A DNA stretch of 64,000 bases from an uncultured bacterium (GCA_964392085.1 CAYMOV010000005.1:5343-69342), one strand, 5' to 3'. Shown: positions 5,139 to 61,593, counted from the stretch's first letter. A program made the numbers and translations. The notes: generated from the sequence alone by a model not told the origin.

Positions 5139-5365
5139 GAAATCCTCAAGGGAATCAAAATGGGAGGCTGGGGGGCCCCGGGCCGGTCCTGGAAGCCGGG
5201 ATGATACACCTTCAGGGCCCTTTCACAACACCCGCCGGGACCGAAAAGAAGGCGGCGCGGGGCCCCAACGGCCCAGCCCATCCCCCGGGGGACGTTGGAC
5301 CGAAAACCCCCCAAGGGAGGTCCCAAAGAAAGGATAATGCGCGGACACCAACGGAAGTCACGGAC

Positions 5366-8827: not shown

Positions 8828-9012
8828 CCCGGCCCCCTTCACCGAATCCTCAACAGGACGGTTTGTCCTGGGTCCATGAAATGGGGGCCGCCCTCATTTC
8901 CCCGCGCGGGCCCTGCCCGCGGATGCCCAAAACAATGGTGAGGGGGCGGAAAATGAACCCCAACGACACAATGGCCCGGGTTGGGCGATCCCTGAATTTC
9001 CCATGCTCCAAG

Positions 9013-35059: not shown

Positions 35060-37399
35060 TCACGGGCACTTCTCCGCGTAGAAGGAGAAGTTCCAGTCCT
35101 GCGCGCCAGCCGGGCTGAACGTTGCCGGGAACGCCTGGTAGCTGTACCACTCGAACTGCCCCACCCCCGTCGGGGTGTTGGCCACCTGCATGTCGATCCC
35201 CGCGGCGGTGTTGTTGGACATGAAGGCGATCCAGTAGGTCCCGGTCGCGAGGGTCCCCGTGTTGGGGATGTCCACGGTGTTCCAACCGGTCACCGGGACC
35301 TGGTCGCCGGATTGGGACAACAACGCGGAGGGGCTCCCCGAGGCGTCGGTATAAAGGGCCATCCGGATCAATCCCGTGGGAGTGTTGGGGAGGTACACGT
35401 GGAGCTTGGTCACCACGCTGGACGTGCCCAGGGTGAACTTCGTGGCCAGTATGTTCCCCCCCGAGTAGTTGCTGGCGCTCCCCACGGGCGAGGTGTTGCC
35501 GAAGGTCGTGGGCGTGCACCCCGGGATCGGCGTCTCCGTCCGGGTAGGCGAGGGGGTGGAGGTGAAGGTCGGGGTGAAGGTCCAGGTGACCGTCGGGACC
35601 GGTGTGGGCGTCGCGGGCCCCACGCAGTAGTCCGCGTAAAAGGCGAAGGCCCAGTCGGTACCGCCGTAGCTGGAGAAGGGACTCGGGAAAGACCCCGTGA
35701 AGGACATGCCCTGGTACTGGCCGTCCCCGGTGGTCCCGTAATCCAGGGACATATCGATGCTGTTATCCGCCACCAGGGCGATCCAGTAGGTGCCCGGGTC
35801 CAGGGGCGAAGTGGTGGGGACCACCACGTTGTTCCACCCCACGACGGAGGTTTGGGGGTTCGAGGCGGCGATCAGGGTCCCCGGTTGGGAGGCGCCGTTG
35901 GAGTAGAGCGCCATGCGGATGTTCGCCCCGGCATTGGAGGGGATGTAGGCGTGGAGTTTGTTGACCTGTCCTGAGGTGGTCAGGGTGAAATGGGTGGCGA
36001 GGGCGTTACCCGGCGAGAAGCCGCTTCCCACGCTCCCCCCCTGGAAATTCTTTCCGAATGAGAAAAGGGTGCAGGCCGGGAGCGGCGTGAAAGTAAACGT
36101 CGCGGTGGGGGTGGAGGTAAAGGTCGGCGTCGGCGTCCAGGTGGCGGTCCGGACCGGCGTGGGCGTCCCGGCCCCCACGCAGTAGTCCGCGTAGAAGCTG
36201 AAGCTCCAGTCGGTGGCGCCCGAGCCGGTGAAGGGGCTTGGGAAGGAGCCGAACGAGGCGGACTGGTACTGCCCGTCCCCCGTCGTTTGGTTGTCCAGGG
36301 ACAGGTCGATCGGGTGGTCCGCCTCGAGCGCGATCCAATAGGTGCCGGGAGCGAGGGCAACGGTGTTGGGGATGTCCACGTTGTTCCACCCGTTCACGGC
36401 CGACTGGCTGGACGAGGCCGCCAGCACCGTCCCGGGTTGGGACGCCACGTCGTTGTAGATCGCCATCTCGAGGTTCGTCCCGGGGGTCGGGGCCGAGTGG
36501 ATATAGGCGTGCAAAACCGTCGCCTGGCCGACGGCGGTCAGGGTGAAACGCGAGGCGAAGATGTTCGGGTTGTTGTAGACGCCATTGGCGGCCCCGATCC
36601 AGTTCTTGCCGAAGGAGAAGGTGGAGCAACCGGGGAGCGGGGTCTGGGTGAAGGTGTGGGTGAAGGTCGGCGTGAAGGTCGGGGTGGGGGTCCAGGTGTC
36701 GGTGGGCACCGGGGTATCGGTGGCGGCCCCCACGCAATAGTCGGCGTAGGCCGAGAAGGCCCAGGTGTTTGCGGTGCCGCCCGAGAACGTCGGGGGGAAA
36801 GGGCCAAAGGCCATGCCGGAATACTGTCCGTCGCCCGTGGAACCGGTGTCGAAGGCCAGGCCGAGGTCGATATCGAAAGCCACGGCGATCCAGTAGGTCC
36901 CGGCGGGCAACGCCCCGGTATCCGGCACGTCCAGGGTGTTCCAGCCGACGGTGGTCACCCTCACGCTGGACTGGGTCAGCAGGTTGCCCGGTGCGGAACC
37001 GTTGTTGTCGTAGAGGGCCATCCGGACGCTGGAGCCCGAGGTGGTGGCGTAAACGTGGAGTTTGGTGACCTGGCCGGAGGTGGAAAGGGTGTAGCGCGAG
37101 GCGAAAAGGTTGCCCGACGAGAAGACCGAGCTGGAGGCACCCAGGAAGTTCTTGCCGAAGGTGAAGGGCGAGGCGCAAAGGGGCGTCTCGGTGATGGTTG
37201 GGGTGGCCGTGGGGGAACCAGGCGTCGGTGTCCGGGTGTTGGTGCTGGTCATGGTGGGCGTGCCCGTCAAGGGGTTGACGGTGAGGGTGTTCGTCGGGGG
37301 TTCCTGCCCGGGGGCGGTGGGCGAGGATTTTTTCTTGCAGCCCACGTAGGCCAAGGCCACAAGGGTCAACAGGATGGCCGTCAGGCGGAAGCGTTTCAT
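35060..37399 (-). CDS. lipoprotein with four tandem ~190-aa repeat domains separated by TPTPTFT linkers
   Basis: The ATG at 37399 gives MKRFRLTAILLTLVALAYVGC (lipobox). Each repeat follows the pattern CxxFxFGKNxxGxxxxxxxxNxxAxxFTLTTSGQVxKLHAYxxS...MALYxxxxSxPGxLxAxS...VxGWNxVxxPxTxxLxxGTYWIA...TGDGQYxxxSF...W-FxFYADYC. The ORF track's extra N-terminus (to 37495) is probably untranslated. Confidence 0.8.
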   Translation of the reverse strand: MKRFRLTAILLTLVALAYVGCKKKSSPTAPGQEPPTNTLTVNPLTGTPTMTSTNTRTPTPGSPTATPTITETPLCASPFTFGKNFLGASSSVFSSGNLFASRYTLSTSGQVTKLHVYATTSGSSVRMALYDNNGSAPGNLLTQSSVRVTTVGWNTLDVPDTGALPAGTYWIAVAFDIDLGLAFDTGSTGDGQYSGMAFGPFPPTFSGGTANTWAFSAYADYCVGAATDTPVPTDTWTPTPTFTPTFTHTFTQTPLPGCSTFSFGKNWIGAANGVYNNPNIFASRFTLTAVGQATVLHAYIHSAPTPGTNLEMAIYNDVASQPGTVLAASSSQSAVNGWNNVDIPNTVALAPGTYWIALEADHPIDLSLDNQTTGDGQYQSASFGSFPSPFTGSGATDWSFSFYADYCVGAGTPTPVRTATWTPTPTFTSTPTATFTFTPLPACTLFSFGKNFQGGSVGSGFSPGNALATHFTLTTSGQVNKLHAYIPSNAGANIRMALYSNGASQPGTLIAASNPQTSVVGWNNVVVPTTSPLDPGTYWIALVADNSIDMSLDYGTTGDGQYQGMSFTGSFPSPFSSYGGTDWAFAFYADYCVGPATPTPVPTVTWTFTPTFTSTPSPTRTETPIPGCTPTTFGNTSPVGSASNYSGGNILATKFTLGTSSVVTKLHVYLPNTPTGLIRMALYTDASGSPSALLSQSGDQVPVTGWNTVDIPNTGTLATGTYWIAFMSNNTAAGIDMQVANTPTGVGQFEWYSYQAFPATFSPAGAQDWNFSFYAEKCP

Positions 37400-37565
37400 G
37401 GTCGGCTCCGGGAAAGGGGTTATGAAGTTCCCGAAGGTTAGCGGAAGACCACGACAAAAAACCAGGGGGGGACGGTGGAAATCCCACGGATTCACGCCGA
37501 TTTAACCGTGGGATCCCGGCCAGGGGTGGGGGATTCCCGTGGGCGCTCCGGAAGGCTTCCGACCT

Positions 37566-43655: not shown

Positions 43656-44174
43656 TTACTTCGCGACGGCGTCCTGCTTCTTCTCGTCGATCTTCTCGTT
43701 GGTCTTGTCCAGCTCTTTTTGGTCCGCGTTGAGGTTCTTGACGTGGGTGCGGCGGTGCTTGTGGTCGGCCTTCAGCTGGTCGACCTTCACGTCACGCTGA
43801 TCACGGTGTTCCTTCAGGTCCGCCGCGTCCCGGTTGATGGCTTTCTGGTCCTTGTGCAGGTCGGCTTTCTCGTCCGCGACGCCCTCATGGTCGCCTTCCA
43901 TCTTGGCGTCCTTCAACTGGGCCTTGTCCTTCGTCCTCTGTTTCGCGTGGTGGTTGAGGGCCTTTTTGCTGGTCTTCACCCCTTCGTTGTGCTCCTGGAC
44001 CGCGGCCTTGTCCCGGTCGATCTTGGCGTCCGCCTGGACCACGCCCTTCTCGTCCGCGCGGATGTCCTGCTTAAGGTCCTTCTTGTCCGACTGGAGGGAG
44101 GCCTCATCCGCCTTCACGATCCCGGTGGCCGACAACAGCATCAAACCCATCACAACCGCCCATTGCTTCTTCAT
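43656..44174 (-). CDS. secreted Lys/Asp-rich coiled-coil repeat protein
   Basis: Signal peptide MKKQWAVVMGLMLLSATGIVKA, followed by about 150 aa of KDxK/ADxK heptad-like repeats (LEA- or stress-protein-like). Confidence 0.7.
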   Translation of the reverse strand: MKKQWAVVMGLMLLSATGIVKADEASLQSDKKDLKQDIRADEKGVVQADAKIDRDKAAVQEHNEGVKTSKKALNHHAKQRTKDKAQLKDAKMEGDHEGVADEKADLHKDQKAINRDAADLKEHRDQRDVKVDQLKADHKHRRTHVKNLNADQKELDKTNEKIDEKKQDAVAK

Positions 44175-44798: not shown

Positions 44799-45749
44799 TC
44801 AAGGCGCCGGCTCGGTGATGGTATTGGACAAAAGCGTGACCTCGTCGATCTCGGAGAACGCCCGGCCCACCAACACGGCGCCGGTGTTCAGCGTGACCTG
44901 GTTGTAAGCCATGATCGTCCCCACGAAGGAGGTCGTGGTGTCCAGGGCGCACATGCTGCCCACCTGCCAAAAGACGTTGGTGGCCTTGGCGCCCCCGGCC
45001 AGGAGGACCTGACGGCCCGGGGTCGTGGTGAGGGTGGAGGCGATCTGGAAGATGAAGACCGCGTTCGGGTCGCCCTGGCCGTCAAGGGTGAGGTCCCCCG
45101 AGGAGACCTCCAGGGATCCGGTGGATTTGTAGAGGCCCGGAGCCAGCGTCTGGCCCCCGATGTTCCCCGCCAACACGGTGGGATTGGTCCGGCCGGCGGC
45201 GTCGTTATAGGCGATCGTCAGGTCCGCCATGGCGTTGGCCGCGGCGGTGTCGGTCACGTGGTAGACCCCGCCGCAACTCACGACGGGCGCCCCCACGACC
45301 GCGCTGCCGGGCGAAAGGCCCAGGTCGCCGCAAAGCGTGGTGGGGCCGCTGTTGGTGATCGTGGTGTAACCCAGGACCACGAACCCCACCGCGGAACCGA
45401 GGTTCACCGGGAGTTGGGACGTTTGGGATGTCGGGGTGGATGTGACGATCAGGGTCGCGGTCGCGGTCGTCGTGTCGGTTGTGGAGGGGGTCGGAGTGGG
45501 CGTCCCGGTGGGGGTTGAAGTCCACAGGGAGGTGGAGGTCTTCGACGGGGTGGGGGTCTGGGTCCGTGCGGGGGTGGCGGTGGGGCTTGAAGTCCAAGTC
45601 GCGGTCGCGCCGAGGGTCCTCGTCGCGGTCACTGTCGCGGCGAGCGGCCCCACCGGGGGGCTCGGGGAGTCGATTTCACGGCGACAGCCGACGAAAAGGA
45701 CGGCCGGAATGAGCGCAAGGAGGGATAAACGGCCGATGTTTTTTTTCAC
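44799..45749 (-). CDS. DUF3494 (ice-binding-like family) lipoprotein, paralog 1
   Basis: GTG start with a GGAGAC RBS, lipobox LFVGC, and a TPT-rich linker. The DUF3494 core reads [18 protein letters not shown]...AYNDAAGRT...LTLDGQGDPNAVFIFQ...FWQVGS...TLNTGAVLVGRAF...NTIT. Confidence 0.85.
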   Translation of the reverse strand: MKKNIGRLSLLALIPAVLFVGCRREIDSPSPPVGPLAATVTATRTLGATATWTSSPTATPARTQTPTPSKTSTSLWTSTPTGTPTPTPSTTDTTTATATLIVTSTPTSQTSQLPVNLGSAVGFVVLGYTTITNSGPTTLCGDLGLSPGSAVVGAPVVSCGGVYHVTDTAAANAMADLTIAYNDAAGRTNPTVLAGNIGGQTLAPGLYKSTGSLEVSSGDLTLDGQGDPNAVFIFQIASTLTTTPGRQVLLAGGAKATNVFWQVGSMCALDTTTSFVGTIMAYNQVTLNTGAVLVGRAFSEIDEVTLLSNTITEPAP

Positions 45750-45807
45750 GGGGAGTCTCCGGGGAATCTTTCGACAAGCCGATTTGACTTTTAGGACATC
45801 CGTAAGA

Positions 45808-45821
45808 GCAAGGAACGTGCC
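45808..45821 (-). promoter_or_regulatory. sigma-54-type promoter (-24 GGCACG / -12 TTGC) upstream of DUF3494 paralog 1
   Basis: The minus strand reads gGGCACGttccTTGCtctta, with 4-nt spacing as in TGGCACG-N4-TTGCW. It lies about 59 nt upstream of the start codon. Confidence 0.5.
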
Positions 45822-46041
45822 CCGCCCCCCGGTTTTTTATATAAACGTTTTGTGGCAGGTCACCATTATTCCGGAGCCCCCCGGCACCCCTGTTTTCAAT
45901 TCCCGATTTGGTTCGAGACGACGCCTCCCGGACTCGGGCTTCGTTCAAGGCGGTGCCCGTGGACCATCCGGGCCGGATCAAAATGGTAGCCATTTCCCCG
46001 AATTGATTCCCTGGGGCGGGGCTGATCGGCGCCCTCCGGGT

Positions 46042-46083
46042 AAAAAAAGAGCGGCGGACCCGGTTCATTCCAGGTCCGCCGCT
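46042..46083 (-). terminator. Rho-independent terminator of DUF3494 paralog 2
   Basis: gcggcggacc...ggtccgccgc stem with T7 on the minus strand. Confidence 0.6.
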
Positions 46084-46110
46084 TCTAACGACCCACCTCA
46101 ATCCGGTCCC

Positions 46111-47100
46111 TTAGGGAGCGGGTTTGGTGATGGTATTGGCCAAAAGGGTGACGTTGCCGTTCGAACCGAAGGCCCGGCCTTCCAGGAACGCGCCCGTGTT
46201 CAGGGTGACCGAGTTATAGGCCAGGATGTTGCCCACCATGGAGACCGTGGTCCCGAGCGAGCAATAATCCGACACCTGCCAGAACACCCGGTCGGCTTTC
46301 GCGCCACCCGAGAGGAGGACCTGCCGTCCCGACGTCACGTCCAGCACGCCGGAGACCTGGAAGATGAACACCGCGTTCACGTCACCCAGGGCGTCCAGGG
46401 TGAGGTCCGCCGAGGAGATCGACAGGTTCCCACCATCGGTATAGAGGCCGGGATACAGCGTGAGGCCCCCCAGGTCATCGCCCGTCGGCAGGATCGCGCC
46501 TCCCGTGCGGCTCGCCGCGTCGGTATAGGCGTTCGAAAGGTCCAATTTGGCCGTATTGGCCGCGCCGTTGGCCACATCGGTGGTTCCCCCGCAAAGCACA
46601 ACGATCCCCCCATCCACCTGGCTACCCGGGTAAAGCCCGAGGCTGCCGCAAAAGGTGGAAGCCCCGGAGTTGGTGATCTGGGAATAGGCCAGGCCCACGT
46701 AATTCAAGGCGGAGCCCAGCAACACCATCCCCTGGACGTTTTGGGGCGTTGGGGACAATGTCGCCGTCGGGGTCATGGTCATGGTCGCGGTCTCCGTCGG
46801 CGTCAGGGAATCCGTGGAGGTCGAAGTCACCGTGGGCGTCAAGGTGAGCGTGGACGTCGCGGTGGCTGTGGGGGTGTGCGTGAACGTCGCGGTGGCGGTG
46901 GGTGTGGGCGAAGCCGTCCGGGTCATGGTGGCCGACGCGGTCATCGTCCGGGTCGATGTCACGGTGGCGGTCCGGGTGGAGGTAAAGGTCGCGACGGGGG
47001 CCTGCGGCGCCGCCGGAGTGGTGGTCGTATGCTTACAGCCCGCCAGGAAGGCGGCTGAAAGGCCCAACAAAGCCATGAAAGTCCCGATTAACTTTTTCAT
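46111..47100 (-). CDS. DUF3494 (ice-binding-like family) lipoprotein, paralog 2
   Basis: The ATG at 47100 with an AGGAGC RBS gives MKKLIGTFMALLGLSAAFLAGC. A PT linker is followed by the DUF3494 core (GSLGLYPG...LTLDALGDVNAVFIFQ...NTITKPAP). Confidence 0.85.
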   Translation of the reverse strand: MKKLIGTFMALLGLSAAFLAGCKHTTTTPAAPQAPVATFTSTRTATVTSTRTMTASATMTRTASPTPTATATFTHTPTATATSTLTLTPTVTSTSTDSLTPTETATMTMTPTATLSPTPQNVQGMVLLGSALNYVGLAYSQITNSGASTFCGSLGLYPGSQVDGGIVVLCGGTTDVANGAANTAKLDLSNAYTDAASRTGGAILPTGDDLGGLTLYPGLYTDGGNLSISSADLTLDALGDVNAVFIFQVSGVLDVTSGRQVLLSGGAKADRVFWQVSDYCSLGTTVSMVGNILAYNSVTLNTGAFLEGRAFGSNGNVTLLANTITKPAP

Positions 47101-47145
47101 CGTCACCGCTCCTAGGTTCTTTTGTAGTCGAGGGGATGGGTAAGA

Positions 47146-47159
47146 GCAAGGAACGTGCC
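47146..47159 (-). promoter_or_regulatory. sigma-54-type promoter upstream of DUF3494 paralog 2
   Basis: The minus strand reads tGGGCACGttccTTGCtcttaccc, about 46 nt upstream of the ATG. Confidence 0.5.
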
Positions 47160-47305
47160 CAACCCCGTTACCGGGAAGACTGCCTTCCTTCGCTCCGGAA
47201 GCCCCTGAAAACCCAGTTTGACCGGCCCAGTGCCGGAAGCCGTCGATCAATTTGAGCCGTCGCCTCTCTTTATGATCCGCTTCGGTTCCGGTCCCGGACC
47301 GGTAT

Positions 47306-47349
47306 AAAAAAAGAACGGCGGGCCGGGGACCGTCCCCAACCCGCCGTTC
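47306..47349 (-). terminator. Rho-independent terminator of DUF3494 paralog 3
   Basis: gaacggcggg...cccgccgttc stem with T7 on the minus strand. Confidence 0.6.
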
Positions 47350-47372
47350 CCAAGAACCAGCATCCCAATCCC

Positions 47373-48350
47373 TTACGGGGTAGGCATGGTGATGGTGTTG
47401 GACAACATCGTGACCTGGGCGGTCATCGAGAAGGCCCGGCCGTTCAGGACGGCGCCCGTGTTGAAGGCGATCTGGGTGTAGGCCATGATCGTGCCGACGA
47501 ACGACGAGGTCGTATCGAACGCGCAGGAAGTACCCACCTGCCAGTAGACCTGGGAAGGCTTGGCGCCGTTGATCAAGAGCACCGATCGCGCCGAGGCGGC
47601 GCTGAGGGTGGTGGCGATCTGGAAGATGAAGACCGGATTGGCGGCGTTCTGGCCGTCCAGGACTAGGTCGGCCGAGGTGACTTCCAGCGAGCCGTTGGAC
47701 TGGTAAAGGCCCGGCGTGAGGGTCAAGCCCCCCAAATCGCCCGTGATCAGGGTGGGGTTGGTCCGCCCCGCCGCGTCGTTATAGGCGGTCGTCACGTCAC
47801 CTTGGGCTGTCGCCGCGGTGCCGTCCGTGATGTGCTCGACTCCACCGCAGCCGAAGAGGTACCCGGCGCCCTGCGAGGTTCCCGGCGAAAGTCCTAGGTC
47901 GCCGCAAATCGAGGTGGCGCCTGAGTTCGTCAGGGCCGCGTAGGCCAAAACGACGAAACCGGCCGCCGAATTCAGGTTGACCGGGGCTTGGGTCGCCTGG
48001 ATGGTGCCGGTCGAGGTGGGGGTAAAGGTCACCGTCGCGGTCTCGGTCGGGGTCGACGTCAACGTCGCGGTGGCCGTAACCGTCGGCGTGAAGCTGGCCG
48101 TCTTGGTCGGCGTCGCCGACAGGGTCGCGCTGGGCGTCGAGGTGGGGGTGGAGGTCGCGGAGGACGTCGCCGTGAACGTCCTGGTCGCGGTGGGCACCAA
48201 GGTGGAGGTGCGGGTGATGGTCGGGGTGGAGGTGGCGGTGTCCACCGGGGGAACCGGCGCCGCCGGGTTCGAATCCTTGTGCTTGCAGCCCACCATGACG
48301 GCGGCCGAAAGCGCCAGCACGACCATGAAACGTCCTAAGATCTTTTTCAC
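47373..48350 (-). CDS. DUF3494 (ice-binding-like family) lipoprotein, paralog 3
   Basis: GTG start with an [31 protein letters not shown], a TPT linker, and the DUF3494 core. Confidence 0.85.
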
Positions 48351-48409
48351 TTTCGCTTCTCCTGGTTGATTTTTTATCCGCGTCGTGCGAGCTGAGGGAA
48401 GGGGCTAAA

Positions 48410-48423
48410 GCAAGGACCGTGCC
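48410..48423 (-). promoter_or_regulatory. sigma-54-type promoter upstream of DUF3494 paralog 3
   Basis: The minus strand reads aGGCACGgtccTTGCtttag, about 60 nt upstream of the GTG. Confidence 0.5.
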
Positions 48424-48549
48424 TCATTTCCACCGCCTTCCAAGTCCGTGAAACCGGCCGGATCTCCTTAAACCCCCCCCGGTGAATTACCCCGCGGGTT
48501 CCCTGGCGGATCAAAACGAGACGACTCATCCCAAGGTGATCCGGGTTCC

Positions 48550-49329
48550 TCAAGGGGCCGGTCGGGTGACTTGGTTGGTCTTGAAGGTCACCTGCTCGAT
48601 CTCCGACAGGGCCCGGCCCTCCAGATGGACGCCGGTGTCCAGGTTGATTTGCGTGTGGGCCATGATGGTCCCCACGAAGGATGTGCCGGTCGCGAGGGAA
48701 CAGGAACTGCCCACCTGCCAATAGACGTTCGTGGCCTTCGCGCCCCCGGCCAGATGGACCCGGCGGTTCGGCAGGGTGCTGAGGGTGGAGGCGATCTGGA
48801 AGATGAAGACGCCGTTGGGGTCGCCCTGGGCGTCCAGGGTCAAGTCCCCCGCGGAGATCTCCAGCGAGCTGGTGGATTTATAGAGCCCCGGATACAGGGT
48901 CTGGCCCGCCAAATCCCCCGCCACGAGGGCCGGATTTGTCCGCCCCCCCGCGTCCGTATAGGCCGCCGCGAGGTCCACCTTGGCGCCGGCCGCGGCGCTG
49001 TCGGTCACGTGGTACACGCCGCCGCAACCCACCACGGGCGCCCCCACCACCGCGCTTCCAGGGGACAGGCCGAGGTCGCCGCAGAGCGTGGTGGCTCCGG
49101 TGTTGGTGATGGTGGTGTAGGCCAGGGCCACGAAACTCGAGGCGGACAGGAGGTTGACCGGTGTCTGGGCCGCCTGGGGCGTCGCGGTATTCACGGGCGT
49201 CGGGCTGTTCGTCGGGGTTCCCACCGGGCCCCCCGGGCCCATGGGCGCCTGGTTATCGTGCTTACAACCGGCCAAAAAGGCGGCCGAGAGGAGCGCCGCC
49301 GAAGCCAAACCGACGATGAGTTTCTTCAT
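48550..49329 (-). CDS. DUF3494 (ice-binding-like family) lipoprotein, paralog 4
   Basis: The ATG at 49329 with a GGGGAGA RBS gives MKKLIVGLASAALLSAAFLAGC, followed by the DUF3494 core. The ORF-track N-terminal extension is not protein-like. Confidence 0.85.
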   Translation of the reverse strand: MKKLIVGLASAALLSAAFLAGCKHDNQAPMGPGGPVGTPTNSPTPVNTATPQAAQTPVNLLSASSFVALAYTTITNTGATTLCGDLGLSPGSAVVGAPVVGCGGVYHVTDSAAAGAKVDLAAAYTDAGGRTNPALVAGDLAGQTLYPGLYKSTSSLEISAGDLTLDAQGDPNGVFIFQIASTLSTLPNRRVHLAGGAKATNVYWQVGSSCSLATGTSFVGTIMAHTQINLDTGVHLEGRALSEIEQVTFKTNQVTRPAP

Positions 49330-49457
49330 CTTGATTCTCCCCTTGCCGTTGAGGGACCTGGATCCCAAAAGGAAACCCGCGTTCGGGGATCCCCGCCCAC
49401 GGGTTCCGTCAAGCCGGACGCGATTCCAAACGGATGCCCCGCTCCGCCCCCAACCCA

Positions 49458-50240
49458 TCAGGGCGCGGGCTTGGTGATCGTGTTGGACAGCAAGGTCACC
49501 TGCTCGATTTGCGACAGGGCCCGGCCTTCCAGCACAACGCCCGTGTTGAGCGTGATCTGGTTGTGGGCCATGATCGTGCCCTTGAAGGACGTGGTGGTGT
49601 CCAGGTTGCATTGGCTGCCCACCTGCCAGAACACGTTGGCGGCCTTCGCGCCGCCGGCCAGGATCACCGCGCGGCCCGGGGTGGTGGTGAGGGTGGAGGC
49701 GACCTGGAAGATGAAGACGCCGTTGGGGTTGCCCTGCGCGTCCAGGGTCAGGTCACCCGACGAGACCTCCAGCGAGCCGCTCGACTTATAGAGGCCCGGA
49801 TAGAGCGTCCTGCCGCCCAGGTTGCCGGCCACGAGGGCCGGGGTGGTCCTTCCCGCGGCGTCGTTATAGGCGGTGGTGAGGTCGCCTTGGGCGACCCCCG
49901 CTGCGGTGTCGGTGATGTGCGCGACGCCCCCGCAGGCGAGGACGTACCCACCGCCCCCGGCGGAGCCCGGCGAAAGGCCGACGTCCCCGCAAAGGGTCGA
50001 GGGGCCGCTGTTGGTGATCTGGGTGTAGGCCAGCACCACGAAGCTCGCGGCCGAATTAAGGTTGACCGCCGCTTGGGCGGCCTGGGGCGTCGCCGTGGGC
50101 CCCGGGGTGAAGGTCCGGGTCGGTGTGGCCGCCGGGGGGCCCGATGGCGCGGCCGGGCTGGAGTCCTGATGCTTGCAACCCACCGCGATCAACGCCGGCA
50201 AGAGCGCCAGCAGGAAAAAACCGGTCAGTTTCTTTTTCAA
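49458..50240 (-). CDS. DUF3494 (ice-binding-like family) lipoprotein, paralog 5
   Basis: Probable TTG start at 50240 with a GGGAGA RBS, giving (M)KKKLTGFFLLALLPALIAVGC. No in-frame ATG precedes the signal peptide. The DUF3494 core ends NTITKPAP. Confidence 0.8.
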   Translation of the reverse strand: MKKKLTGFFLLALLPALIAVGCKHQDSSPAAPSGPPAATPTRTFTPGPTATPQAAQAAVNLNSAASFVVLAYTQITNSGPSTLCGDVGLSPGSAGGGGYVLACGGVAHITDTAAGVAQGDLTTAYNDAAGRTTPALVAGNLGGRTLYPGLYKSSGSLEVSSGDLTLDAQGNPNGVFIFQVASTLTTTPGRAVILAGGAKAANVFWQVGSQCNLDTTTSFKGTIMAHNQITLNTGVVLEGRALSQIEQVTLLSNTITKPAP

Positions 50241-53065: not shown

Positions 53066-53461
53066 TCAGGGGGTGGTGGCATGGGCCGCGGCCGGGACGG
53101 CGGCGGCCGGGACCTGGGCCTTCACGCCGGTTCCCTCGGTGGGGTACCCCGCGTCCGCCCATTCCTGGGTCCCGCCCAGGTAGTCATCGGCCTTGAAGCC
53201 CCGCTTTTGCAGGGCCAAGGCCGCCGCCGGACCCGCCTTGCAGGTCAGTCCGGCGCAATAAGTGATGAGGAACCGGTCTTTCCCGAACCGCTTCTCGACC
53301 GCGTGGGCGAATTCGTCCACGCTGGTCCCGAAGGGGATGTTTTCCGAGCCCGTGATATGGCGCATCTCAAACTCGCCCTCGGGCAGGACGTTCAGGACCA
53401 CGACGTTCTTATTCTTCATCTTGGCCAACACGCTTTGCTTGGTCATCGGCATCTTCGTCAC
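53066..53461 (-). CDS. rhodanese-domain protein
   Basis: 131 aa with the active-site Cys loop YCAGLTCKAG. Confidence 0.7.
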   Translation of the reverse strand: MTKMPMTKQSVLAKMKNKNVVVLNVLPEGEFEMRHITGSENIPFGTSVDEFAHAVEKRFGKDRFLITYCAGLTCKAGPAAALALQKRGFKADDYLGGTQEWADAGYPTEGTGVKAQVPAAAVPAAAHATTP

Positions 53462-53760
53462 CTCGGGAGGCGTTCGTTATGGGGAGTGCTAAAGCAAGTT
53501 CCATACCGACCCCTCATCGCCCAAAAACAGTCCTACCCAACCGCGCCCTTATAGGAACGGGAACCCGGGGCGGGGAAAGGGCATCGACCGGGCCGGGAAA
53601 CGGGCGATCAATGTGATCGTCTGGAGGCCTCAATTTGATTCCCGGCGCCCACCCCAACGCCGAACAGCCCCAAGGGCCTGGTTCTTTCCCGCGACGCCAT
53701 GGCCCGCTTCTTGCTCTCGGGGTCGGTGCGGTCCTTTCCAGAAATAAAACAGGAGTCCCC

Positions 53761-54036
53761 ATGTACGAAAATCACGGTTTCCACAATTTGCTCTGGTTCC
53801 TGGTCGTCGGCGGAGCCGCCGGTTGGTTGGCGAGCCTCTTGGTCCAAGGCGGCGGGATGGGGATCGTGGCGGACATCGCCGTGGGGATCCTGGGGGCGTT
53901 CCTGGGCGGTTGGTTGATCGACTTCTTCAACCTCAACGTCTGGGGCTTCTGGGGATCATTCTGCATGTGGGTCTTGGGCGCCGCGATCCTGCTGGTGGTG
54001 TTTAGGGCCCTCTCGGGCAAACGCGCAACCCGGTAA
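53761..54036 (+). CDS. GlsB/YeaQ/YmgE-family transglycosylase-associated stress membrane protein
   Basis: The ATG at 53761 with a CAGGAG RBS gives LLWFLVVGGAAGWLASLLVQGGGMGIVADIAVGILGAFLGGWL. The upstream part of the tracked ORF is not protein-like. Confidence 0.75.
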   Translation: MYENHGFHNLLWFLVVGGAAGWLASLLVQGGGMGIVADIAVGILGAFLGGWLIDFFNLNVWGFWGSFCMWVLGAAILLVVFRALSGKRATR

Positions 54037-55631: not shown

Positions 55632-56321
55632 TCATTCCGCCAACCGCCGCTTCAGCCCCTCGAGGTTGAGCACCGTGAAACGGCCCCGGCCGGCGGCGAT
55701 CAACCCCGACTCCTCGAAACGGAGGAAGGTCCGGATGCAGGTTTCCTCGGTGGTGCCCGCCATCTCCGCGACGGCCTTGCGGGTCATGGGAACCCTGGGA
55801 CCGTACTCCCGCGCCATTTCGATGATCACGTGGATCACGCGTTTCTCGACCGTCTCCCGGGAAAAGACATGCCGGTTCCTCATGGCGCGCAGGAGGTTCG
55901 ACATACGGGAGACCATGCCCCAGGCCATCTCGGGGCATTTTCCCATGAGGAACTTGAACCGCAGGATCGGGAAGGAGACCGCCACGGCGTCGGTTTCCGC
56001 CAGGCAGTAACAGCCGTATTCGCCGCCGTTGAAGGACGCGGTCCCGAACATCCCCCCCACCCCGATGAGTCCGAGGGTCAAGTCCCGTCCCTCCACCGTG
56101 TGGAGCCCCTCCTTCACGTAACCCTCCTTGACGAACCAGATGGAGGCCGCCTCGTCATCCTCCTGGAAGAGGGAATCCCCCTCGGCGTATTTGCGCTCGA
56201 TCCCCCCGTCCTCGACTTCCCGGAAAGCCCAAGCCGGCAGGCTTCTGAAGACCTCCATGGCGGAGAGGAGGTTCCTTGAGGCGGACGGGACGGCCCCGAG
56301 CCTGGGTTTCGTCGTGGGCAT
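55632..56321 (-). CDS. Crp/Fnr-family transcriptional regulator
   Basis: It has a cNMP-binding beta-roll and a C-terminal HTH (TRKAVAEMAGTTEETCIRTFLRFEESGLI). Confidence 0.85.
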   Translation of the reverse strand: MPTTKPRLGAVPSASRNLLSAMEVFRSLPAWAFREVEDGGIERKYAEGDSLFQEDDEAASIWFVKEGYVKEGLHTVEGRDLTLGLIGVGGMFGTASFNGGEYGCYCLAETDAVAVSFPILRFKFLMGKCPEMAWGMVSRMSNLLRAMRNRHVFSRETVEKRVIHVIIEMAREYGPRVPMTRKAVAEMAGTTEETCIRTFLRFEESGLIAAGRGRFTVLNLEGLKRRLAE

Positions 56322-56636
56322 AATGCCTTCTTTCGGGCAGAGTGATCGCCTTGACAGGTTACCCCCCGCGGGCCCGGTGGGTATCTTTAATTAATGATTT
56401 AAGTCGGGTCGGGTCACGCGGTCCGCGCGCCCAACACCGGCGCGATCAATTTGAGACCCGCGAAAATCATTTTGATTATTTTCGGCGGGTCCGCGGGATC
56501 GAACGCCCCATTCGGGGCCGCGCGCACCATTCCCGAGGGGAATCCAGTTCCCCTTGTGGCCCGCTTCTTGCTTTCAACTACAACAACAAGGGCGCATTCC
56601 CGGCCCTGATGTCCCTGATTCCTTCAAGGAAGATCC

Positions 56637-56990
56637 ATGGCCAAGAACCTTCGCGAGAGACCCGTCCCTTCCACCTTCTTGGACACGATGATCCGGATAG
56701 GCGGCGCCTTCATCGGCGGCGCGAAGCCCCTGGTCCACCGGTTGCGTGACGGCCTGGAGTCCCAGGCGGACCTCTACACCCAAGCCCTGGAGCGCCGCCT
56801 GGTGGCTTTGGCCCTCCGGGGATTCGCCCTTTTCCTGGGCGTGTGCTTCATCGGGTTGGGGATCCTTTTCACCCTGATCGACAAGGGGGGCGTCCCCCGG
56901 GGGATCGCCTTCCTTGGCGGCGGGTTGTTCGGCCTGTTGGTTTATGCCTTTTTACTCAAATACAGCAAGGAAAGCGGGTGGACGACGTGA
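56637..56990 (+). CDS. YqjE/holin-X-like (PF07332-type) two-TM membrane protein
   Basis: 117 aa with two TM helices and the conserved N-terminal amphipathic region. It pairs with the downstream DUF883 gene, as in E. coli yqjE-yqjD. Confidence 0.55.
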   Translation: MAKNLRERPVPSTFLDTMIRIGGAFIGGAKPLVHRLRDGLESQADLYTQALERRLVALALRGFALFLGVCFIGLGILFTLIDKGGVPRGIAFLGGGLFGLLVYAFLLKYSKESGWTT

Positions 56991-57356: not shown

Positions 57357-58118
57357 ATGTTGACTGTCCGAAGGTCCGAAGAGCGCCATCACATCCAAAA
57401 CGACGGGCAAAACACCTGGGTGACGTTTGATTGGGGAAACAAGGCCGATCCCCTGCGGGACGGCTTCGGGGTGCTGAAGATCCTCAATGAGGAAACCCTG
57501 TCCCCGGGTCGGGGCTTCATCCTCCATACGCACAACGACATGGTGGTGGTGACCTACGTGCAGGCGGGCATGGTCATCTACAAGGGCACGCTTGAGGAAC
57601 CCGATTTCCTGGAGACCAAGGAATTCCAGCGGATCAACTCCACGCCCGACACGAAGCAGTACGTCTTCAACCCCTCCCAATCCGAGGACGCCCATGTCTT
57701 CCAAAGCGGGTTCACCCCCCAAGCGGGCGCTTTGAGGCCCGGGAGCCTGAAGAAGCTCTTCACCCACGCGGAACGGCAGGGGATCCTGAAACTTATCGCC
57801 TCCCCCGACGGCCGGGAGGGTTCCCTCCCTATCCAACAGGACGTCTACATGTATTCCACCTACGCGCACAATGGGAACCATGTCGTCCACGAGATCACCG
57901 CCGGAAGGACCACCTGGCTCCACGTGGTCAAGGGAGAGGTCCAGATGGCGGACCTTCATCTCAAAACAGGGGACGCTGTCGGCGTCTCGGATGAAAGGTC
58001 CATCTCCTTCACGGCGAAGGGCCCGACCGAGATATTGCTCTTCGACCTTTGCGCCCCGGTACCCGACAAGCTCACCAAGAACTCCGACGTCAACCGCCAG
58101 AACGCCATGATGAATTAG
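57357..58118 (+). CDS. pirin-family (cupin) protein
   Basis: It has the HTHNDMVVVTYVQAG metal-binding region and a bicupin architecture. Confidence 0.85.
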   Translation: MLTVRRSEERHHIQNDGQNTWVTFDWGNKADPLRDGFGVLKILNEETLSPGRGFILHTHNDMVVVTYVQAGMVIYKGTLEEPDFLETKEFQRINSTPDTKQYVFNPSQSEDAHVFQSGFTPQAGALRPGSLKKLFTHAERQGILKLIASPDGREGSLPIQQDVYMYSTYAHNGNHVVHEITAGRTTWLHVVKGEVQMADLHLKTGDAVGVSDERSISFTAKGPTEILLFDLCAPVPDKLTKNSDVNRQNAMMN

Positions 58119-58365
58119 CGGGATGATGAGGAATCCGGACTCAAGTGGCCCCCCCAACCGATCACAGTAGGGGGACTTCCGGCTTCCCATTGTCATTGGG
58201 AACAAAGTCAAAAGCGGGGTCGTGTCGCACGAGCGAATCACCCAAAAAACCGGGATTTACGGCCATTCGCACGAACCAAGTGGTTGTCGACTCGCCTTGA
58301 GAAAGCCTTTTTTCGCCAGGGTCGTCAGGGGGTTGTGTCGCCTGACTTTGGGCCAGGGGTCGGTT

Positions 58366-59658
58366 TTAGAATATATTTACCTTATGAGAGTTCCCTTCCC
58401 GCTTTCCGGCCACTCCGTAATAATTCAACAGATATCGCATGGTAAGGCCCTGAACCAAAACGGAGAAGAGAACAACCCCGTAAGTGGCTGCCAGGATTAA
58501 ATCCTTTTCCGGCAGGTCCGGCAAGGAAAGGGCCATTGCGATCGAAAGCCCACCCCTCAAACCTCCCCACGTGAGAATAGAAACGATTCCTCTTCGGCTT
58601 TCGTTCCATTGGATGAATCGAATGGGAAGGATGACCGAAAGAAACCTTGAAGCCAAAACAACGGGTACGGCCCCCAGGCCTATCAGCAGGTTGCGCCCAC
58701 CTACAAAAGTGTCAAAAACCTTCAGACCGATTAAAAGGAATAACACAGCATTCAAGATGTCGTCCATCATTCCCCAAAAAGCATCAAAATGCTCCGCGGT
58801 TTTTTGACTCATGGCATATCGCTTGCCGTGGTTGCCGATCAAAAGCCCCGCCACCACCACCGCGATGGGGCCGGATACACCCAACCGGAAAGAAAGGGAG
58901 TACATAAACATGACCAAAGCCAACGTGATCAAAAGTTCTAACTGGTGATAATTGATGCTTTTGAGCATCCTGAACGCCATGTAGCCCAAACCTAATCCTA
59001 AGAGAACACCACCAACCACTTCCCGCAGGAACAACCAAAACACATAGAGAGGGGATAAGGAAAGGGCAGATCCTTCCCCCCCGATTCCCGCCAAAGAGGT
59101 TAGGGCGAAAAAAACGACGACTCCCACACCATCATTGAAAAGGGATTCACCGGCGATGGTGGCCTCCAATTCCTTCGGGGCCCTTAGTTCTTTTAGCAGT
59201 CCCAAGACCGCGATTGGATCAGTGGGTGAAATAAGCGCCCCAAATACCATGCAAACCAAAAGGGAGACCTCCATTCCCGAGGCTTTGAGAAGCGCATAAC
59301 TCAGTCCCCCTACCATTGCCGTTGAAAAGAGGACACCTAGGGTCGCCAATACGAGGATGGTCCATCGGTTGGCCTTCAAGTCCTTGAATTTGACGTGGAG
59401 GGCCCCCGCAAACAAAAGAAAACAAAGCATGCCATGCATTAAAACCCGGTTGAAGTCGATGCCCGCCAGGAAAGTATTCAGGCCCGCCTTCAGGTGCCAC
59501 TGGGGTAGAAGCCAGCCGGTCGCCAACATGAAGAGAGAACTGAAGAGGGCAATGCTCATGATGCCTGTGGTGGCCGGAAGCCGTAAGAACCGGTAATTGA
59601 GGTAGCCGAACGCCGCCGCCAGGGCGATCAAAACAGCCGCGATATCGAAAACAGTCAT
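58366..59658 (-). CDS. cation:proton antiporter (CPA1, NhaP-type Na+/H+ exchanger)
   Basis: 430 aa with about 12 TM helices and the TDP/ND motif region (ISPTDPIAVLGLL...GESLFNDGVGVV). Confidence 0.9.
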   Translation of the reverse strand: MTVFDIAAVLIALAAAFGYLNYRFLRLPATTGIMSIALFSSLFMLATGWLLPQWHLKAGLNTFLAGIDFNRVLMHGMLCFLLFAGALHVKFKDLKANRWTILVLATLGVLFSTAMVGGLSYALLKASGMEVSLLVCMVFGALISPTDPIAVLGLLKELRAPKELEATIAGESLFNDGVGVVVFFALTSLAGIGGEGSALSLSPLYVFWLFLREVVGGVLLGLGLGYMAFRMLKSINYHQLELLITLALVMFMYSLSFRLGVSGPIAVVVAGLLIGNHGKRYAMSQKTAEHFDAFWGMMDDILNAVLFLLIGLKVFDTFVGGRNLLIGLGAVPVVLASRFLSVILPIRFIQWNESRRGIVSILTWGGLRGGLSIAMALSLPDLPEKDLILAATYGVVLFSVLVQGLTMRYLLNYYGVAGKREGNSHKVNIF

Positions 59659-59659
59659 T

Positions 59660-61099
59660 TTAAGAATCCCCAGCTCTTCTTCGGCTTAACGATTCCAACC
59701 GGACAAGAGCCGGCTTAGTTGTCCCGGGTTTTCCCTCCGAGCTTTTTACGTGGAAAGCAAGGTGACGATACAAAGGGACCGGCATGATCAGTTTTCCCAC
59801 CCCTTGCGCCAGGAAAGCGCCGATCATGAAGGGAATCAAAAGCATGCTTTGATCCGTCATTTCCATAATAATGATGACTGCCGTCAATGGAGCCTGAACC
59901 ACTCCTGAAAAGAAAGCCACCATTCCAATCAATGCGCAAGCCTTTAATCCCGCCACTTGAAATAACTGGCCGGTGGTAAAACCCAATCCGGCTCCAATGG
60001 ACAAACAAGGGGAAAATATCCCCCCCGCCATGCCGGACAAATAGGAAAAGGCAGTGGTGAGCAGTTTTTCAGGGAAATAAAGGGATGGCAGGGTTCCCTG
60101 TGCGTTATCCATAAAACGCCGGGTCACTTCATAGCCCGATCCCGCCGTGTCACCGTTGGTAAGAACGTTGATCAAAGCGCAAATAATTCCACACACGAGG
60201 GCTTTTCCCCACCAGGACGAAGGAAGAATTCGGTATTTAGGGTGAGTTAGTATCTTTGAAAAAACACCTCCAAATATCCCGCCCAAGAGACCGAGTAGTA
60301 TGGCGATTGGAATCAGGCTTAATGCCGATCCCTTTACAACAGGGTGGCCAAAGTAAAGGTAATTGCCTCCGATGGCTTGTGCGGTAATTCCACCAACAAT
60401 GACGGCCAACATGACTATTCGCTTGAACTGGGCGAAGGAATGTTCGGCGATCTCCTCTAACGCGAAGGTAATGCCCGCCAATGGGGTGTTAAAAGCCGCC
60501 GAAATCCCAGCTGATGCACCCGCAATAAGGTAGGACTGAAGATCCAAAGTGCCGAAATAGCGGCGTGCATGCCGTGCCGTAAAGGCAAAAACTGAAGAAG
60601 CCACTTGCACCGTCGGGCCTTCCCGGCCAATAGAAGCCCCGCCCAGGATTCCGACAACACTTGATATGATTTTCCAAGCGGCTGTTTTAATGGACACCAA
60701 CGGCCCTGTCATTTCACCGCGTTTTCCGTTTTCCACCCCATCAATCGCCTGAAGCACTTGAGGTATGCCGCTCCCTTTGGCTTCAGGCGCAAATTTCACT
60801 ACCAGCCATGTCGCCATAAGGAACAGGCACGGCCCAAGCAGAAGCGCCAAATAAGGATGGCTCTGTAATCCTTTATTAAATACGCCCTGGGTCAAAGTTA
60901 TAAGTTCCGCATAGAAATAGGCGATGATACCCACCACGACAGCCGCCAACAATAATGAAGCCTGCATCGTCGTCTTAGGGTGGATGGGGTTCAATTCCCT
61001 AGCACCGGCAGAAATACCCTTTCCAATATGTGAAACCGACTTCGATAATTCGTCCTTGGCTTTCCTCAGATTCATCTTCCTTTGATTCTTAGGCGCCAC
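59660..61099 (-). CDS. ClC-family chloride channel / H+-Cl- antiporter
   Basis: It has the GSGIPQ, GREGPTVQ and GxFxP selectivity-filter motifs and about 10-12 TM helices. Confidence 0.9.
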   Translation of the reverse strand: MAPKNQRKMNLRKAKDELSKSVSHIGKGISAGARELNPIHPKTTMQASLLLAAVVVGIIAYFYAELITLTQGVFNKGLQSHPYLALLLGPCLFLMATWLVVKFAPEAKGSGIPQVLQAIDGVENGKRGEMTGPLVSIKTAAWKIISSVVGILGGASIGREGPTVQVASSVFAFTARHARRYFGTLDLQSYLIAGASAGISAAFNTPLAGITFALEEIAEHSFAQFKRIVMLAVIVGGITAQAIGGNYLYFGHPVVKGSALSLIPIAILLGLLGGIFGGVFSKILTHPKYRILPSSWWGKALVCGIICALINVLTNGDTAGSGYEVTRRFMDNAQGTLPSLYFPEKLLTTAFSYLSGMAGGIFSPCLSIGAGLGFTTGQLFQVAGLKACALIGMVAFFSGVVQAPLTAVIIIMEMTDQSMLLIPFMIGAFLAQGVGKLIMPVPLYRHLAFHVKSSEGKPGTTKPALVRLESLSRRRAGDS

Positions 61100-61593
61100 A
61101 ATTACCTCTTGATCCGACTTTCAGTCGCATGTGACTCGATTTTCTGATGCCTTAATACAGTTTAAAGCCATTTCACTAACAATTTATACACCCACCCTAT
61201 AATAAATTCACTCCATCAGTTTACGACCACCCTGGCCTTCGACATGAAGACCTCTTGCTTCAGGACCCTTCACCGAACTTCCAGTTGAAGCTCTCGATAG
61301 CCTACGTTGTCCATGCCCCTTTGACGGCGGATATCAAGATGGAATGACCTACCAGAGCATGCTTTGGATCCCCTTCATGACTGGCCTTCCCAGATCCAAT
61401 AGTCGTAAAATTCATCCTGCTGGTCCAACTTTATCGTCATCCGGCTTTTCAAAAAACCGTGAAGGAAGGACAATGATAGCTTGAAATCATGATTTCTAAA
61501 ACCAGGAGGAATACCATTATGATCATTCTTGGGGTTGTCCGTGCTTTTCCTGTCATTCCGTTTTTCTGAACTGGATTGTTGATCCTTTTCGCC
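61100..61593. other. low-GC (~45%) 0.5-kb non-coding or decayed region between the ClC gene and atpG
   Basis: It contrasts sharply with the genome's GC content. It contains only short ORFs, for example a 16-aa ORF at 61519 with an AGGAGG RBS and a 38-aa minus-strand ORF. Confidence 0.5.

Follow-up and report, generated by a model that had tools for sequence, protein, structure and literature searches.

Our results suggest that five neighbouring genes in the DNA of an uncultured bacterium encode anciently diverged lipoproteins of the DUF3494, or ice-binding, type and that a stress regulon dependent on sigma-54 takes in at least three of them. The genes, g1 to g5, are paralogs, all on the minus strand, and occupy positions 44799-50240 (the bounds given in the initial annotation of the locus) of a stretch of 64,000 nucleotides (nt), GCA_964392085.1 CAYMOV010000005.1:5343-69342, which is referred to here as the window. 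We consider this joint explanation, in which the organism is a diderm and g1, g2 and g3 are the sigma-54-dependent members, to be the best one and to be probable, with appreciable room left for the rival explanations weighed below. The five genes are as follows.

44799-45749, minus strand: g1, DUF3494 lipoprotein of 316 amino acids (aa), GTG start; PF11999 E-value 4e-58
46111-47100, minus strand: g2, DUF3494 lipoprotein of 329 aa, ATG start; PF11999 E-value 3e-46
47373-48350, minus strand: g3, DUF3494 lipoprotein of 325 aa, GTG start; PF11999 E-value 2e-53
48550-49329, minus strand: g4, DUF3494 lipoprotein of 259 aa, ATG start; PF11999 E-value 6e-56
49458-50240, minus strand: g5, DUF3494 lipoprotein of 260 aa, TTG start after GGGAG; PF11999 E-value 2e-56

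Each of the five proteins matches Pfam PF11999 (DUF3494, Ice_binding) from model position 1 or 2 to position 208 of 208, with 158-197 bits against a gathering cut-off of 28.7 bits and E-values spanning 1e-46 to 1e-58. The initial annotation had assigned a DUF3494 domain to five same-strand genes, and this search with a hidden Markov model (HMM) bears out the assignment in all five; the motifs quoted at that time are all found in the proteins. A second HMM, made from the five domains, found no further DUF3494 gene in the 64-kb window. DUF3494 ice-binding proteins are widespread. Close relatives already carry the NCBI name 'ice-binding family protein'. Amino acid identity is 54-70% over the full length when measured against g1 and 50-76% between pairs of domains, so that the earlier figure of about 60-70% was approximately right, and a repeat finder recognised all five copies, which are 62-80% identical at the nt level and spaced 1312, 1262, 1177 and 908 nt apart.

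The evidence for a shared regulon lies upstream of g1, g2 and g3. Promoters recognised by sigma-54 have a -24/-12 consensus of TGGCACG-N4-TTGCT. The exact string GGCACG-N4-TTGC occurs three times in the 64 kb, each time on the minus strand and 44-58 nt before the start of g1, g2 or g3. These elements are near-identical (GGCACG-N4-TTGCT), agree with the consensus at 11 of its 12 specified positions and have the -24 GG and the -12 GC exactly 10 nt apart. When the regions upstream of the promoters were compared by k-mers, in the window and in related loci, the sequences CATTTTGATC and GATCAAAATG emerged; these half-sites form a dyad of 35-37 nt, GGATCAAAATG-N13-15-CATTTTGATCC, of which the 35-nt form has N13. 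Five dyads in the window agree with the consensus at 17 or more of its 22 positions, as against 0.1 in composition-matched simulations, and three of the five stand upstream of the predicted promoters of the array.

45808-45821, minus strand: predicted sigma-54 -24/-12 element of g1, GGCACGTTCCTTGC, 57 nt before the start codon
47146-47159, minus strand: predicted sigma-54 -24/-12 element of g2, GGCACGTTCCTTGC, 44 nt before the ATG
48410-48423, minus strand: predicted sigma-54 -24/-12 element of g3, GGCACGGTCCTTGC, 58 nt before the start
45975-46009: dyad, putative activator site, 153 nt upstream of the g1 element; 18/22 positions
47244-47278: dyad, putative activator site, 84 nt upstream of the g2 element; 17/22 positions
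48508-48542: dyad, putative activator site, 84 nt upstream of the g3 element; 18/22 positions; includes the weak hairpin of g4

Because the same sigma-54 element and the same upstream dyad precede g1, g2 and g3, these genes are likely to be co-regulated as parts of one regulon, and they would constitute separate transcription units under one shared switch. The initial annotation had taken the genes to be individually regulated, a view which is at odds with this common element and dyad, and with the presence of both before other genes of the window and in relatives. It had also given every gene its own upstream region. That description suits g1, g2 and g3, which follow intergenic regions of 199-361 nt that contain the promoter elements, and fails for g4 and g5, whose upstream gaps of 128 and 88 nt have no recognisable ones. 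Indeed, the best match to the sigma-54 consensus before g4 or g5, or in the other gaps of the minus-strand cluster, was 8/12 with a misplaced GG/GC core. A GGATC...GATCC palindrome before g4 was considered as a possible dyad and was dropped, as by eye it agreed at about 12 of the 22 dyad positions. The regulon would thus cover only part of the array, since g4 and g5 lack the promoter unit; these two genes are probably transcribed from the region of the Dps-like (Ferritin-family) gene upstream of them or from an unrecognised promoter. A scan for the sigma-70 consensus gave nothing relevant in the array region.

The dyad-plus-promoter unit also precedes three genes of the window that do not encode DUF3494 proteins.

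53605-53641: dyad between two divergent sigma-54-like elements; 17/22 positions
53493-53507, minus strand: sigma-54-like element GGTATGGAACTTGCT, 40 nt before the rhodanese-domain gene
about 53066-53452, minus strand: rhodanese-domain gene, downstream of the GGTATGGAACTTGCT element
53701-53714, plus strand: sigma-54-like element (T)GGCCCGCTTCTTGC(T), 45 nt before the Transgly_assoc gene
53761-54036, plus strand: Transgly_assoc (PF04226) gene for a small stress membrane protein, putative member of the g1-g3 regulon
56443-56478: dyad, 79 nt upstream of a sigma-54-like element; 17/22 positions
56558-56571, plus strand: sigma-54-like element within the 16-mer TGGCCCGCTTCTTGCT, 64 nt before the gene for a 117-aa membrane protein
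56637-56990, element upstream on the plus strand: gene for the 117-aa membrane protein, downstream of the 56443-56478 dyad and the sigma-54-like element

An identical 16-mer, TGGCCCGCTTCTTGCT, is present at 53700-53715 and at 56557-56572 on the plus strand despite the differing surroundings of the two sites. The idea that the two small proteins encoded after 56637 are stress proteins of the YqjE/YqjD type was not used, as Pfam gave no significant match.

The same unit recurs in relatives of the array. A survey of the window together with 160 related loci (1.81 Mb) detected 19 dyads, of which 16 have a -24/-12-like element within 260 nt (0.024 per dyad would be expected by chance). The genes downstream of these dyad-element pairs include 11 that encode DUF3494 proteins, 10 of them with a lipobox. 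When the strict promoter motif was searched for before all 257 DUF3494 genes, it was present before 11, against 1.5 expected, and all 11 were among the closest relatives. The order of the parts is fixed (dyad, 59-201 nt, element, 40-65 nt, start codon), and the unit is kept in relatives with a guanine-plus-cytosine (GC) content of 50-56%, as compared with 63% for the window. In one related locus (L031), three of four DUF3494 copies have both dyad and promoter. Another (L166), the contig of an 81% ortholog of g4 (P0022), has three dyad-promoter units, one of which precedes P0022; it therefore seems that the window's g4 has lost such a unit. On a JGI contig, at least three DUF3494 genes stand in tandem, and genes for LysM, an AI-2E transporter and DUF4403 come after them; the window has the same order. 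Inspection of a further locus (L014) for additional regulon members gave no clear result. In the lower-GC relatives L031, L085, L115 and L119, the 5' leaders of DUF3494 genes have common blocks after the -12 position (...CCTGGATTCCAT...GTGG..TTC.AAAAA...AGGAGAAGTGAAAGTGAAAAAGCTTAT); these blocks may hold a short stem and are not obviously shared by the GC-rich copies of the window.

Two of the related loci, L167 and L168, point to a candidate for the protein that acts at the dyad. Both have in common with the window a block of genes for an outer-membrane protein (OMP), a superoxide dismutase (SOD) and DUF7130, and after this block they encode a 541-aa sigma-54 activator with XylR_N, V4R, Sigma54_activat and HTH_8 domains, in which the GAFTGA motif is present. 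Genes for response regulators, a pirin, a GGDEF protein, a Crp-type regulator and three DUF3494 proteins follow. Dyad-like sites and -24/-12 elements precede two of these DUF3494 genes, the pirin gene and the divergent Crp gene; one of the sites reaches 17/22 positions and the rest 16/22. The L167 activator is, by its proximity, the obvious candidate for the dyad. We propose that an enhancer-binding AAA+ activator would bind the dyad and so turn on g1, g2 and g3 together with envelope and stress genes, its further targets being the Transgly_assoc, rhodanese and small membrane-protein genes. A gene for a Crp/Fnr-family regulator (55632-56321, minus strand) sits between two dyad-promoter units of the window, and its ortholog in L167 is preceded by a divergent sigma-54-like element beside a dyad-like site (16/22). 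This regulator may form a second tier of the dyad/sigma-54 circuit.

Separate transcription of the genes was also examined from their 3' ends. The initial annotation had described each gene as separately terminated, which holds clearly for g2 and g3, is plausible for g5 and does not extend to the other two: the weak hairpin after g4 (48517-48533) falls within the conserved dyad upstream of the g3 promoter, and no terminator was found after g1 before the LysM lipoprotein gene that lies 89 nt downstream.

46050-46083, minus strand: intrinsic terminator of g2, 14-bp GC stem followed by U7; z -3.7
47311-47351, minus strand: intrinsic terminator of g3, 19-bp GC stem followed by U7; z -5.5
49372-49407, minus strand: possible terminator of g5, imperfect hairpin (palindrome I2) followed by UUUU; z -1.5, not significant against shuffled sequences

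A scan of 43-52 kb against Rfam at E<=1 returned two chance-level matches only, and hence the long intergenic regions show no sign of a riboswitch or of a leader of known type.

The fold of the proteins is that of a known ice-binding protein. Among sequences of the PDB, the best match to g5 by phmmer was EfcIBP (6EIO; E 1e-59), followed by IBPv, the Cryosericum ice-binding proteins, FfIBP, ColAFP and others. An AlphaFold model was made for one copy, g5, from an alignment of 55 sequences (mean predicted local distance difference test score, pLDDT, 89.4; predicted template modelling score, pTM, 0.81), and it is shaped as a triangular beta-solenoid that has three strands per coil and one long helix (residues 112-129). 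In a Foldseek comparison the model superposed on 6EIO with a template modelling (TM) score of 0.90 (target-normalised), a root mean square deviation of 1.6 A and 50% identity, and every one of its top 31 PDB matches was a DUF3494 ice-binding protein. Sequence and computation together show that the C-terminal part of each protein is a triangular beta-solenoid of the capless EfcIBP type, with one alpha-helix as a brace.

EfcIBP has thermal hysteresis activity and protects cells on freezing (PMC10992025), its ice-binding site consists of T-x-T or T-x-D repeats (PMC7277481), and nIBP of Nostoc, which is 52% identical to it, is also active and binds ice (PMC7783341). The first Thr of six rows aligned with EfcIBP is kept at five of six rows in g1, g2 and g5, at four in g4 and at three in g3, where rows are assigned to the binding face by alignment and by the motif description in PMC7277481, not from coordinates. 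One strand, IASTLTTTPGR, is identical among g1, g5 and EfcIBP. A ladder of Thr-x-Thr/Asp on one flat face would bind ice, and such binding at the cell surface would limit ice growth and recrystallisation there during freeze-thaw. Three Cys of the domain (in TLCGD, xCGG and SxCxL; residues 84, 103 and 211 of g5) are conserved in all five paralogs and kept in most close homologs, and they are absent from EfcIBP; the first two lie on either side of the loop that precedes the helix, and a disulfide between them could add stability.

All five proteins appear to be destined for lipid anchoring. As lipoprotein signals we accepted a basic n-region, a hydrophobic h-region and a lipobox of the form [LVI..][ASTVI..][GAS]C with its Cys 15-35 residues from the start. 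Checked manually against this pattern, each N-terminus has MKK, a hydrophobic stretch of 15-17 residues and a lipobox (LFVGC in g1, FLAGC in g2, VMVGC in g3, FLAGC in g4 and IAVGC in g5) with its Cys at position 22, which makes a signal peptide of 21 residues in every case. A low-complexity tether rich in Thr, Pro, Ser and Ala follows Cys22 and falls into two length classes: the long tethers of g1, g2 and g3 (91, 102 and 100 aa) contain 34-40% Thr, and the short ones of g4 and g5 (34 and 35 aa) contain 17-18% Thr and 21-23% Pro. Searches of the tether-coding DNA for tandem and other repeats found imperfect periodicity of 6, 12, 18 and 30 nt only. The arrangement of signal peptide, lipobox, linker and solenoid, which the initial annotation had recognised and which is present in all five, is common to close homologs.

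The residue at position +2 after Cys22 is Arg or Lys in all five proteins, and by the rule that holds for E. coli there is accordingly no signal for retention in the inner membrane. The window itself (5201-10911, plus strand) encodes a TamB-like protein (1208 aa) and an Omp85/POTRA protein (695 aa), the pair that makes up a translocation-and-assembly module; the organism is thus a diderm. The five proteins would be exported by Sec, lipidated at Cys22 and anchored to a membrane on its outer side, with tethers of two lengths that would keep the solenoids at two stand-off distances from it. Beyond g1, at 43656-44174 on the minus strand, lies a gene for a 172-aa protein with a signal peptide and a repetitive, charged body rich in Lys, Asp, Glu and Gln, which has no Pfam match; its signal peptide (MKKQWAVVMGLMLLSATG...) resembles those of the non-lipoprotein DUF3494 homologs P0021, P0044 and P0089.

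The history of the copies is not that of a recent amplification. In a neighbour-joining tree of the domain, which included copies from related loci, the five are not monophyletic: g1 pairs with P0007 (83%), g4 with P0022 (81%) and g5 with P0002 (86%). The most divergent copy, g2, belongs to a separate subfamily with P0089, L085b, L031b and L031c (63-70%), and g3 is isolated, with a best match of 65%. As copies have closer orthologs elsewhere, the array is old and maintained, and the earlier view that it is more than a simple duplication is supported by the 81-86% orthologs of g1, g4 and g5. Pairwise ratios of nonsynonymous to synonymous substitution (dN/dS, Nei-Gojobori) are 0.22-0.55, with dS of 0.5-1.0 and third-position GC of 0.84-0.90; these are rough values, all below 1, and the paralogs are under purifying selection. 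A sliding-window check for gene conversion found the top nt identity only over the NAVFIFQ motif, with no long tracts of high identity, and repeat searches of the array detected neither inverted repeats flanking the promoters nor slippage or invertible elements. The comparison with antigenic families that had been drawn from the sequence thus finds no footing in the dN/dS values, the conversion and switching searches or the conservation of orthologs elsewhere. Our results point to a co-ordinated surface-protection gene family rather than to a system of antigen variation.

The array is flanked on one side by a Ferritin-family (Dps-like) gene, with g5 88 nt downstream of it, and by genes for DUF7130, an Fe-SOD and outer-membrane barrels, and on the other side by the LysM lipoprotein gene. 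These neighbours fit a setting of freeze, desiccation or oxidative stress. DUF3494 relatives come from many soil-type metagenomes and many phyla, and genes identical to those of the window are present in ENA ERZ27245408, JGI 3300028800 and JGI 3300028556. For a conserved ABC-F protein of the window, metagenome relatives reach 82-84% identity and the nearest named relative, from 'candidate division FCPU426 bacterium', reaches 62%; the lineage is therefore poorly known. Between two and six DUF3494 copies are present in 47 of 162 related loci. In six loci from Bacteroidota (L040, L041, L051, L052, L055 and L057), a short DUF3494 gene is followed directly by two or three much longer genes that contain the domain.

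Several observations weigh against the explanation that we favour. Two of the five genes, g4 and g5, are without a promoter unit. No GAFTGA, ELFGH or RpoN box was detected in the 64-kb window, in which rpoN and the activator gene were not found, and a tblastn search of the same DNA returned no homolog of the L167 activator, which is tied to the dyad by proximity alone. The promoter and activator site of g1, g2 and g3 are predictions, as are the lipidation, sorting and surface exposure of the five proteins and their binding of ice, all of them read from sequence. None of the proteins reaches the cut-off of the NCBIfam equivalog NF045625 (IBP_CFB), with 99-134 bits against 400, and the Thr ladder is partially lost in g3 and g4 when the face is assigned by alignment. 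Finally, DUF3494 proteins are found in habitats that do not freeze as well, and they may have substrates other than ice (PMC11645318).

The main rival draws on several of these points. The proteins could be surface adhesins for an ordered surface other than ice, such as a mineral or a crystalline polysaccharide, within the same stress regulon, and 'ice-binding' would then reflect family history only. The literature permits this reading (PMC11645318, PMC12337378), as DUF3494 proteins have been described as ice- and substrate-binding (PMC12337378). The soil-type metagenomes and many phyla of the relatives, the scores below the equivalog cut-off and the departure of g3 and g4 from the Thr ladder speak in its favour. 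So does the nature of the candidate activator, because activators of the XylR/V4R type usually sense a small molecule, not cold. However, the domains are 47-53% identical to EfcIBP with a near-superposable fold; nIBP, the only protein cited here that is comparably distant from EfcIBP (52%), binds ice (PMC7783341); g1 and g5 retain the IASTLTTTPGR strand unchanged; and the nearby Dps-like Ferritin-family, SOD and Transgly_assoc genes fit freeze or desiccation stress. We consider the non-ice adhesin unlikely, albeit the strongest of the rivals. Another possibility concerns the promoter, namely that the -24/-12-like motif and the dyad have no connection with sigma-54 and represent something else, such as the operator through which the nearby Crp/Fnr-type regulator would act on sigma-70 promoters. 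The location of that regulator gene between two units, repeated in L167, and the failure to find rpoN and activator genes in the window would be in keeping with such an operator. The half-sites, moreover, contain TTGAT/ATCAA, which resembles the half-sites of FNR. Yet the half-sites are 25 nt apart and face outward, unlike FNR or CRP sites, no sigma-70-like hexamers were found in the array region, the order of dyad, element and start is the classic enhancer-dependent layout, and the GG-N10-GC spacing and the 11/12 matches to TGGCACG-N4-TTGCT are kept exactly where the surrounding sequence has diverged. This makes a Crp/Fnr operator improbable.

Two further readings concern the reason for having five copies. 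Tandem ice-binding genes are common in metagenome-assembled genomes (MAGs), for which bulk production has been proposed (PMC9957290), and a single switch is common to g1, g2 and g3; the array could accordingly be a dosage device, its copies serving only the bulk output of one secreted activity. We find this hard to accept, and a shade less credible than a Crp/Fnr operator, for copies that are 50-76% identical, represent distinct orthologous groups older than the species, differ in tether length and in putative binding-face residues, and have a lipid anchor signal, so that they are not predicted to be freely secreted. Least likely of all, and to our minds very improbable, is the suggestion of the initial annotation that this is an individually regulated, diversified surface family comparable to antigenic-variation or variable adhesin families. 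It could appeal to five divergent surface-type paralogs with separate intergenic regions, some of them with their own terminators, and to differences between paralogs that include surface strands. Against it stand the single promoter type and upstream dyad of g1, g2 and g3, the dN/dS values below 1 and the conserved orthologs of each paralog in other organisms; neither promoter-flanking inverted repeats, homopolymer or simple-sequence-repeat tracts at the starts, silent cassettes nor conversion tracts were found in the searches of the array, and the bacterium appears to be a free-living member of an environmental sample, with no host to evade.

The ice-binding lipoproteins that we favour resemble several described systems in part. 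Among solved structures the closest is that of EfcIBP, which comes from the consortium of bacteria associated with the Antarctic ciliate Euplotes focardii and has 47-53% identity in the domain. It shares the capless single-domain beta-solenoid with one helix, the T-x-T/T-x-D rows and an N-terminal export signal. However, it is Antarctic and marine, and the sequence compared is without the lipobox Cys, the Thr/Pro tether and the three Cys of the paralogs. SfIBP_1 of Shewanella frigidimarina (6BG8) has a similar fold (TM score 0.74-0.80 against the g5 model) and has been proposed to be an 'ice adhesin' (Vance et al. 2018, as cited in PMC7783341 and PMC11645318); the logic resembles that proposed here, namely a cell-attached protein whose C-terminal DUF3494 domain is displayed away from the cell by an extender. 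The extender consists of folded Ig-like domains rather than of a low-complexity tether, identity is 27% and the gene is single. SfIBP_1 is probably anchored as a lipoprotein.

In MAGs from the Arctic Ocean, Winder et al. (2023) found that ice-binding genes are mostly flanked by other ice-binding genes and suggested co-regulation or bulk production, naming no promoter or regulator (PMC9957290). Those genes are from marine Flavobacteria and Alteromonadales and mostly have other domain architectures (PMC9957290), whereas g1 to g5 are old paralogs with predicted lipid anchors, of which g1, g2 and g3 would be on separate sigma-54 transcription units. Severe cold strongly induces PL002-1792, an antifreeze-like protein of the lipoprotein type from an Antarctic Flavobacterium; the protein inhibits recrystallisation and has been proposed to be protective while anchored at the surface (PMC13413566). 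In contrast to the genes described here, it is larger (402 aa), single and from another phylum, and sigma-54 control has not been described for it. With regard to the circuit, the nearest likeness is to sigma-54 regulons of the XylR/DmpR type, which combine a -24/-12 promoter with a dyad upstream of it and with an AAA+ activator that has HTH_8, as encoded in L167 and L168. Known members of this type control the catabolism of aromatic compounds and sense the substrate directly. The targets here differ in being envelope and stress proteins, and no such activator gene is present in the window.

Tandem DUF3494 genes, lipoprotein-anchored proteins of the ice-binding type and the fold are thus known already, whereas the sigma-54 wiring and the two tether lengths are not described in the literature searched. 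Nothing was found there, with subscription journals mostly uncovered, on the promoters of bacterial DUF3494 genes or on what regulates them. As a gene family the array is otherwise ordinary, and its value is in the testable sigma-54/dyad circuit: the locus and its relatives provide a promoter type, a 35-nt operator and a candidate activator in a related genome. We tentatively raise a broader possibility, which we hold with much less confidence than the explanation favoured above, that in a little-known candidate lineage of soil bacteria a dedicated regulon of sigma-54 and an enhancer-binding protein, marked by GGATCAAAATG-N13-CATTTTGATCC, drives lipid-anchored ice-binding proteins and envelope-stress proteins, with tethers of about 35 and about 100 residues placing the solenoids in two layers. 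If true, this would be a regulated, layered ice shield on the cell surface and, for bacterial ice-binding proteins, the first transcriptional circuit to be defined. Metagenomes could be searched with the operator to recover the regulon in full. The array is also a natural comparison: its five old paralogs have one fold in common, come with tethers of two lengths and retain the Thr ladder to graded extents. Such a comparison could link sequence to ice-plane specificity, or decide whether DUF3494 proteins from soil bind ice.

Other parts of the window also stood out. Two long open reading frames at 19708-22716 and 35060-37495 on the minus strand, which would encode 1002 and 811 aa, lie in stretches of high GC skew, and Pfam gave no match to either at E<=1e-5. 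At 58001-62000, a block of about 4 kb has a GC content of 51-52%, as compared with about 63% elsewhere, and contains, both on the minus strand, genes for a Na+/H+ exchanger (58366-59658) and a CLC chloride channel (59660-61099); as its GC content is like that of the lower-GC relatives, the block may have been acquired by transfer.

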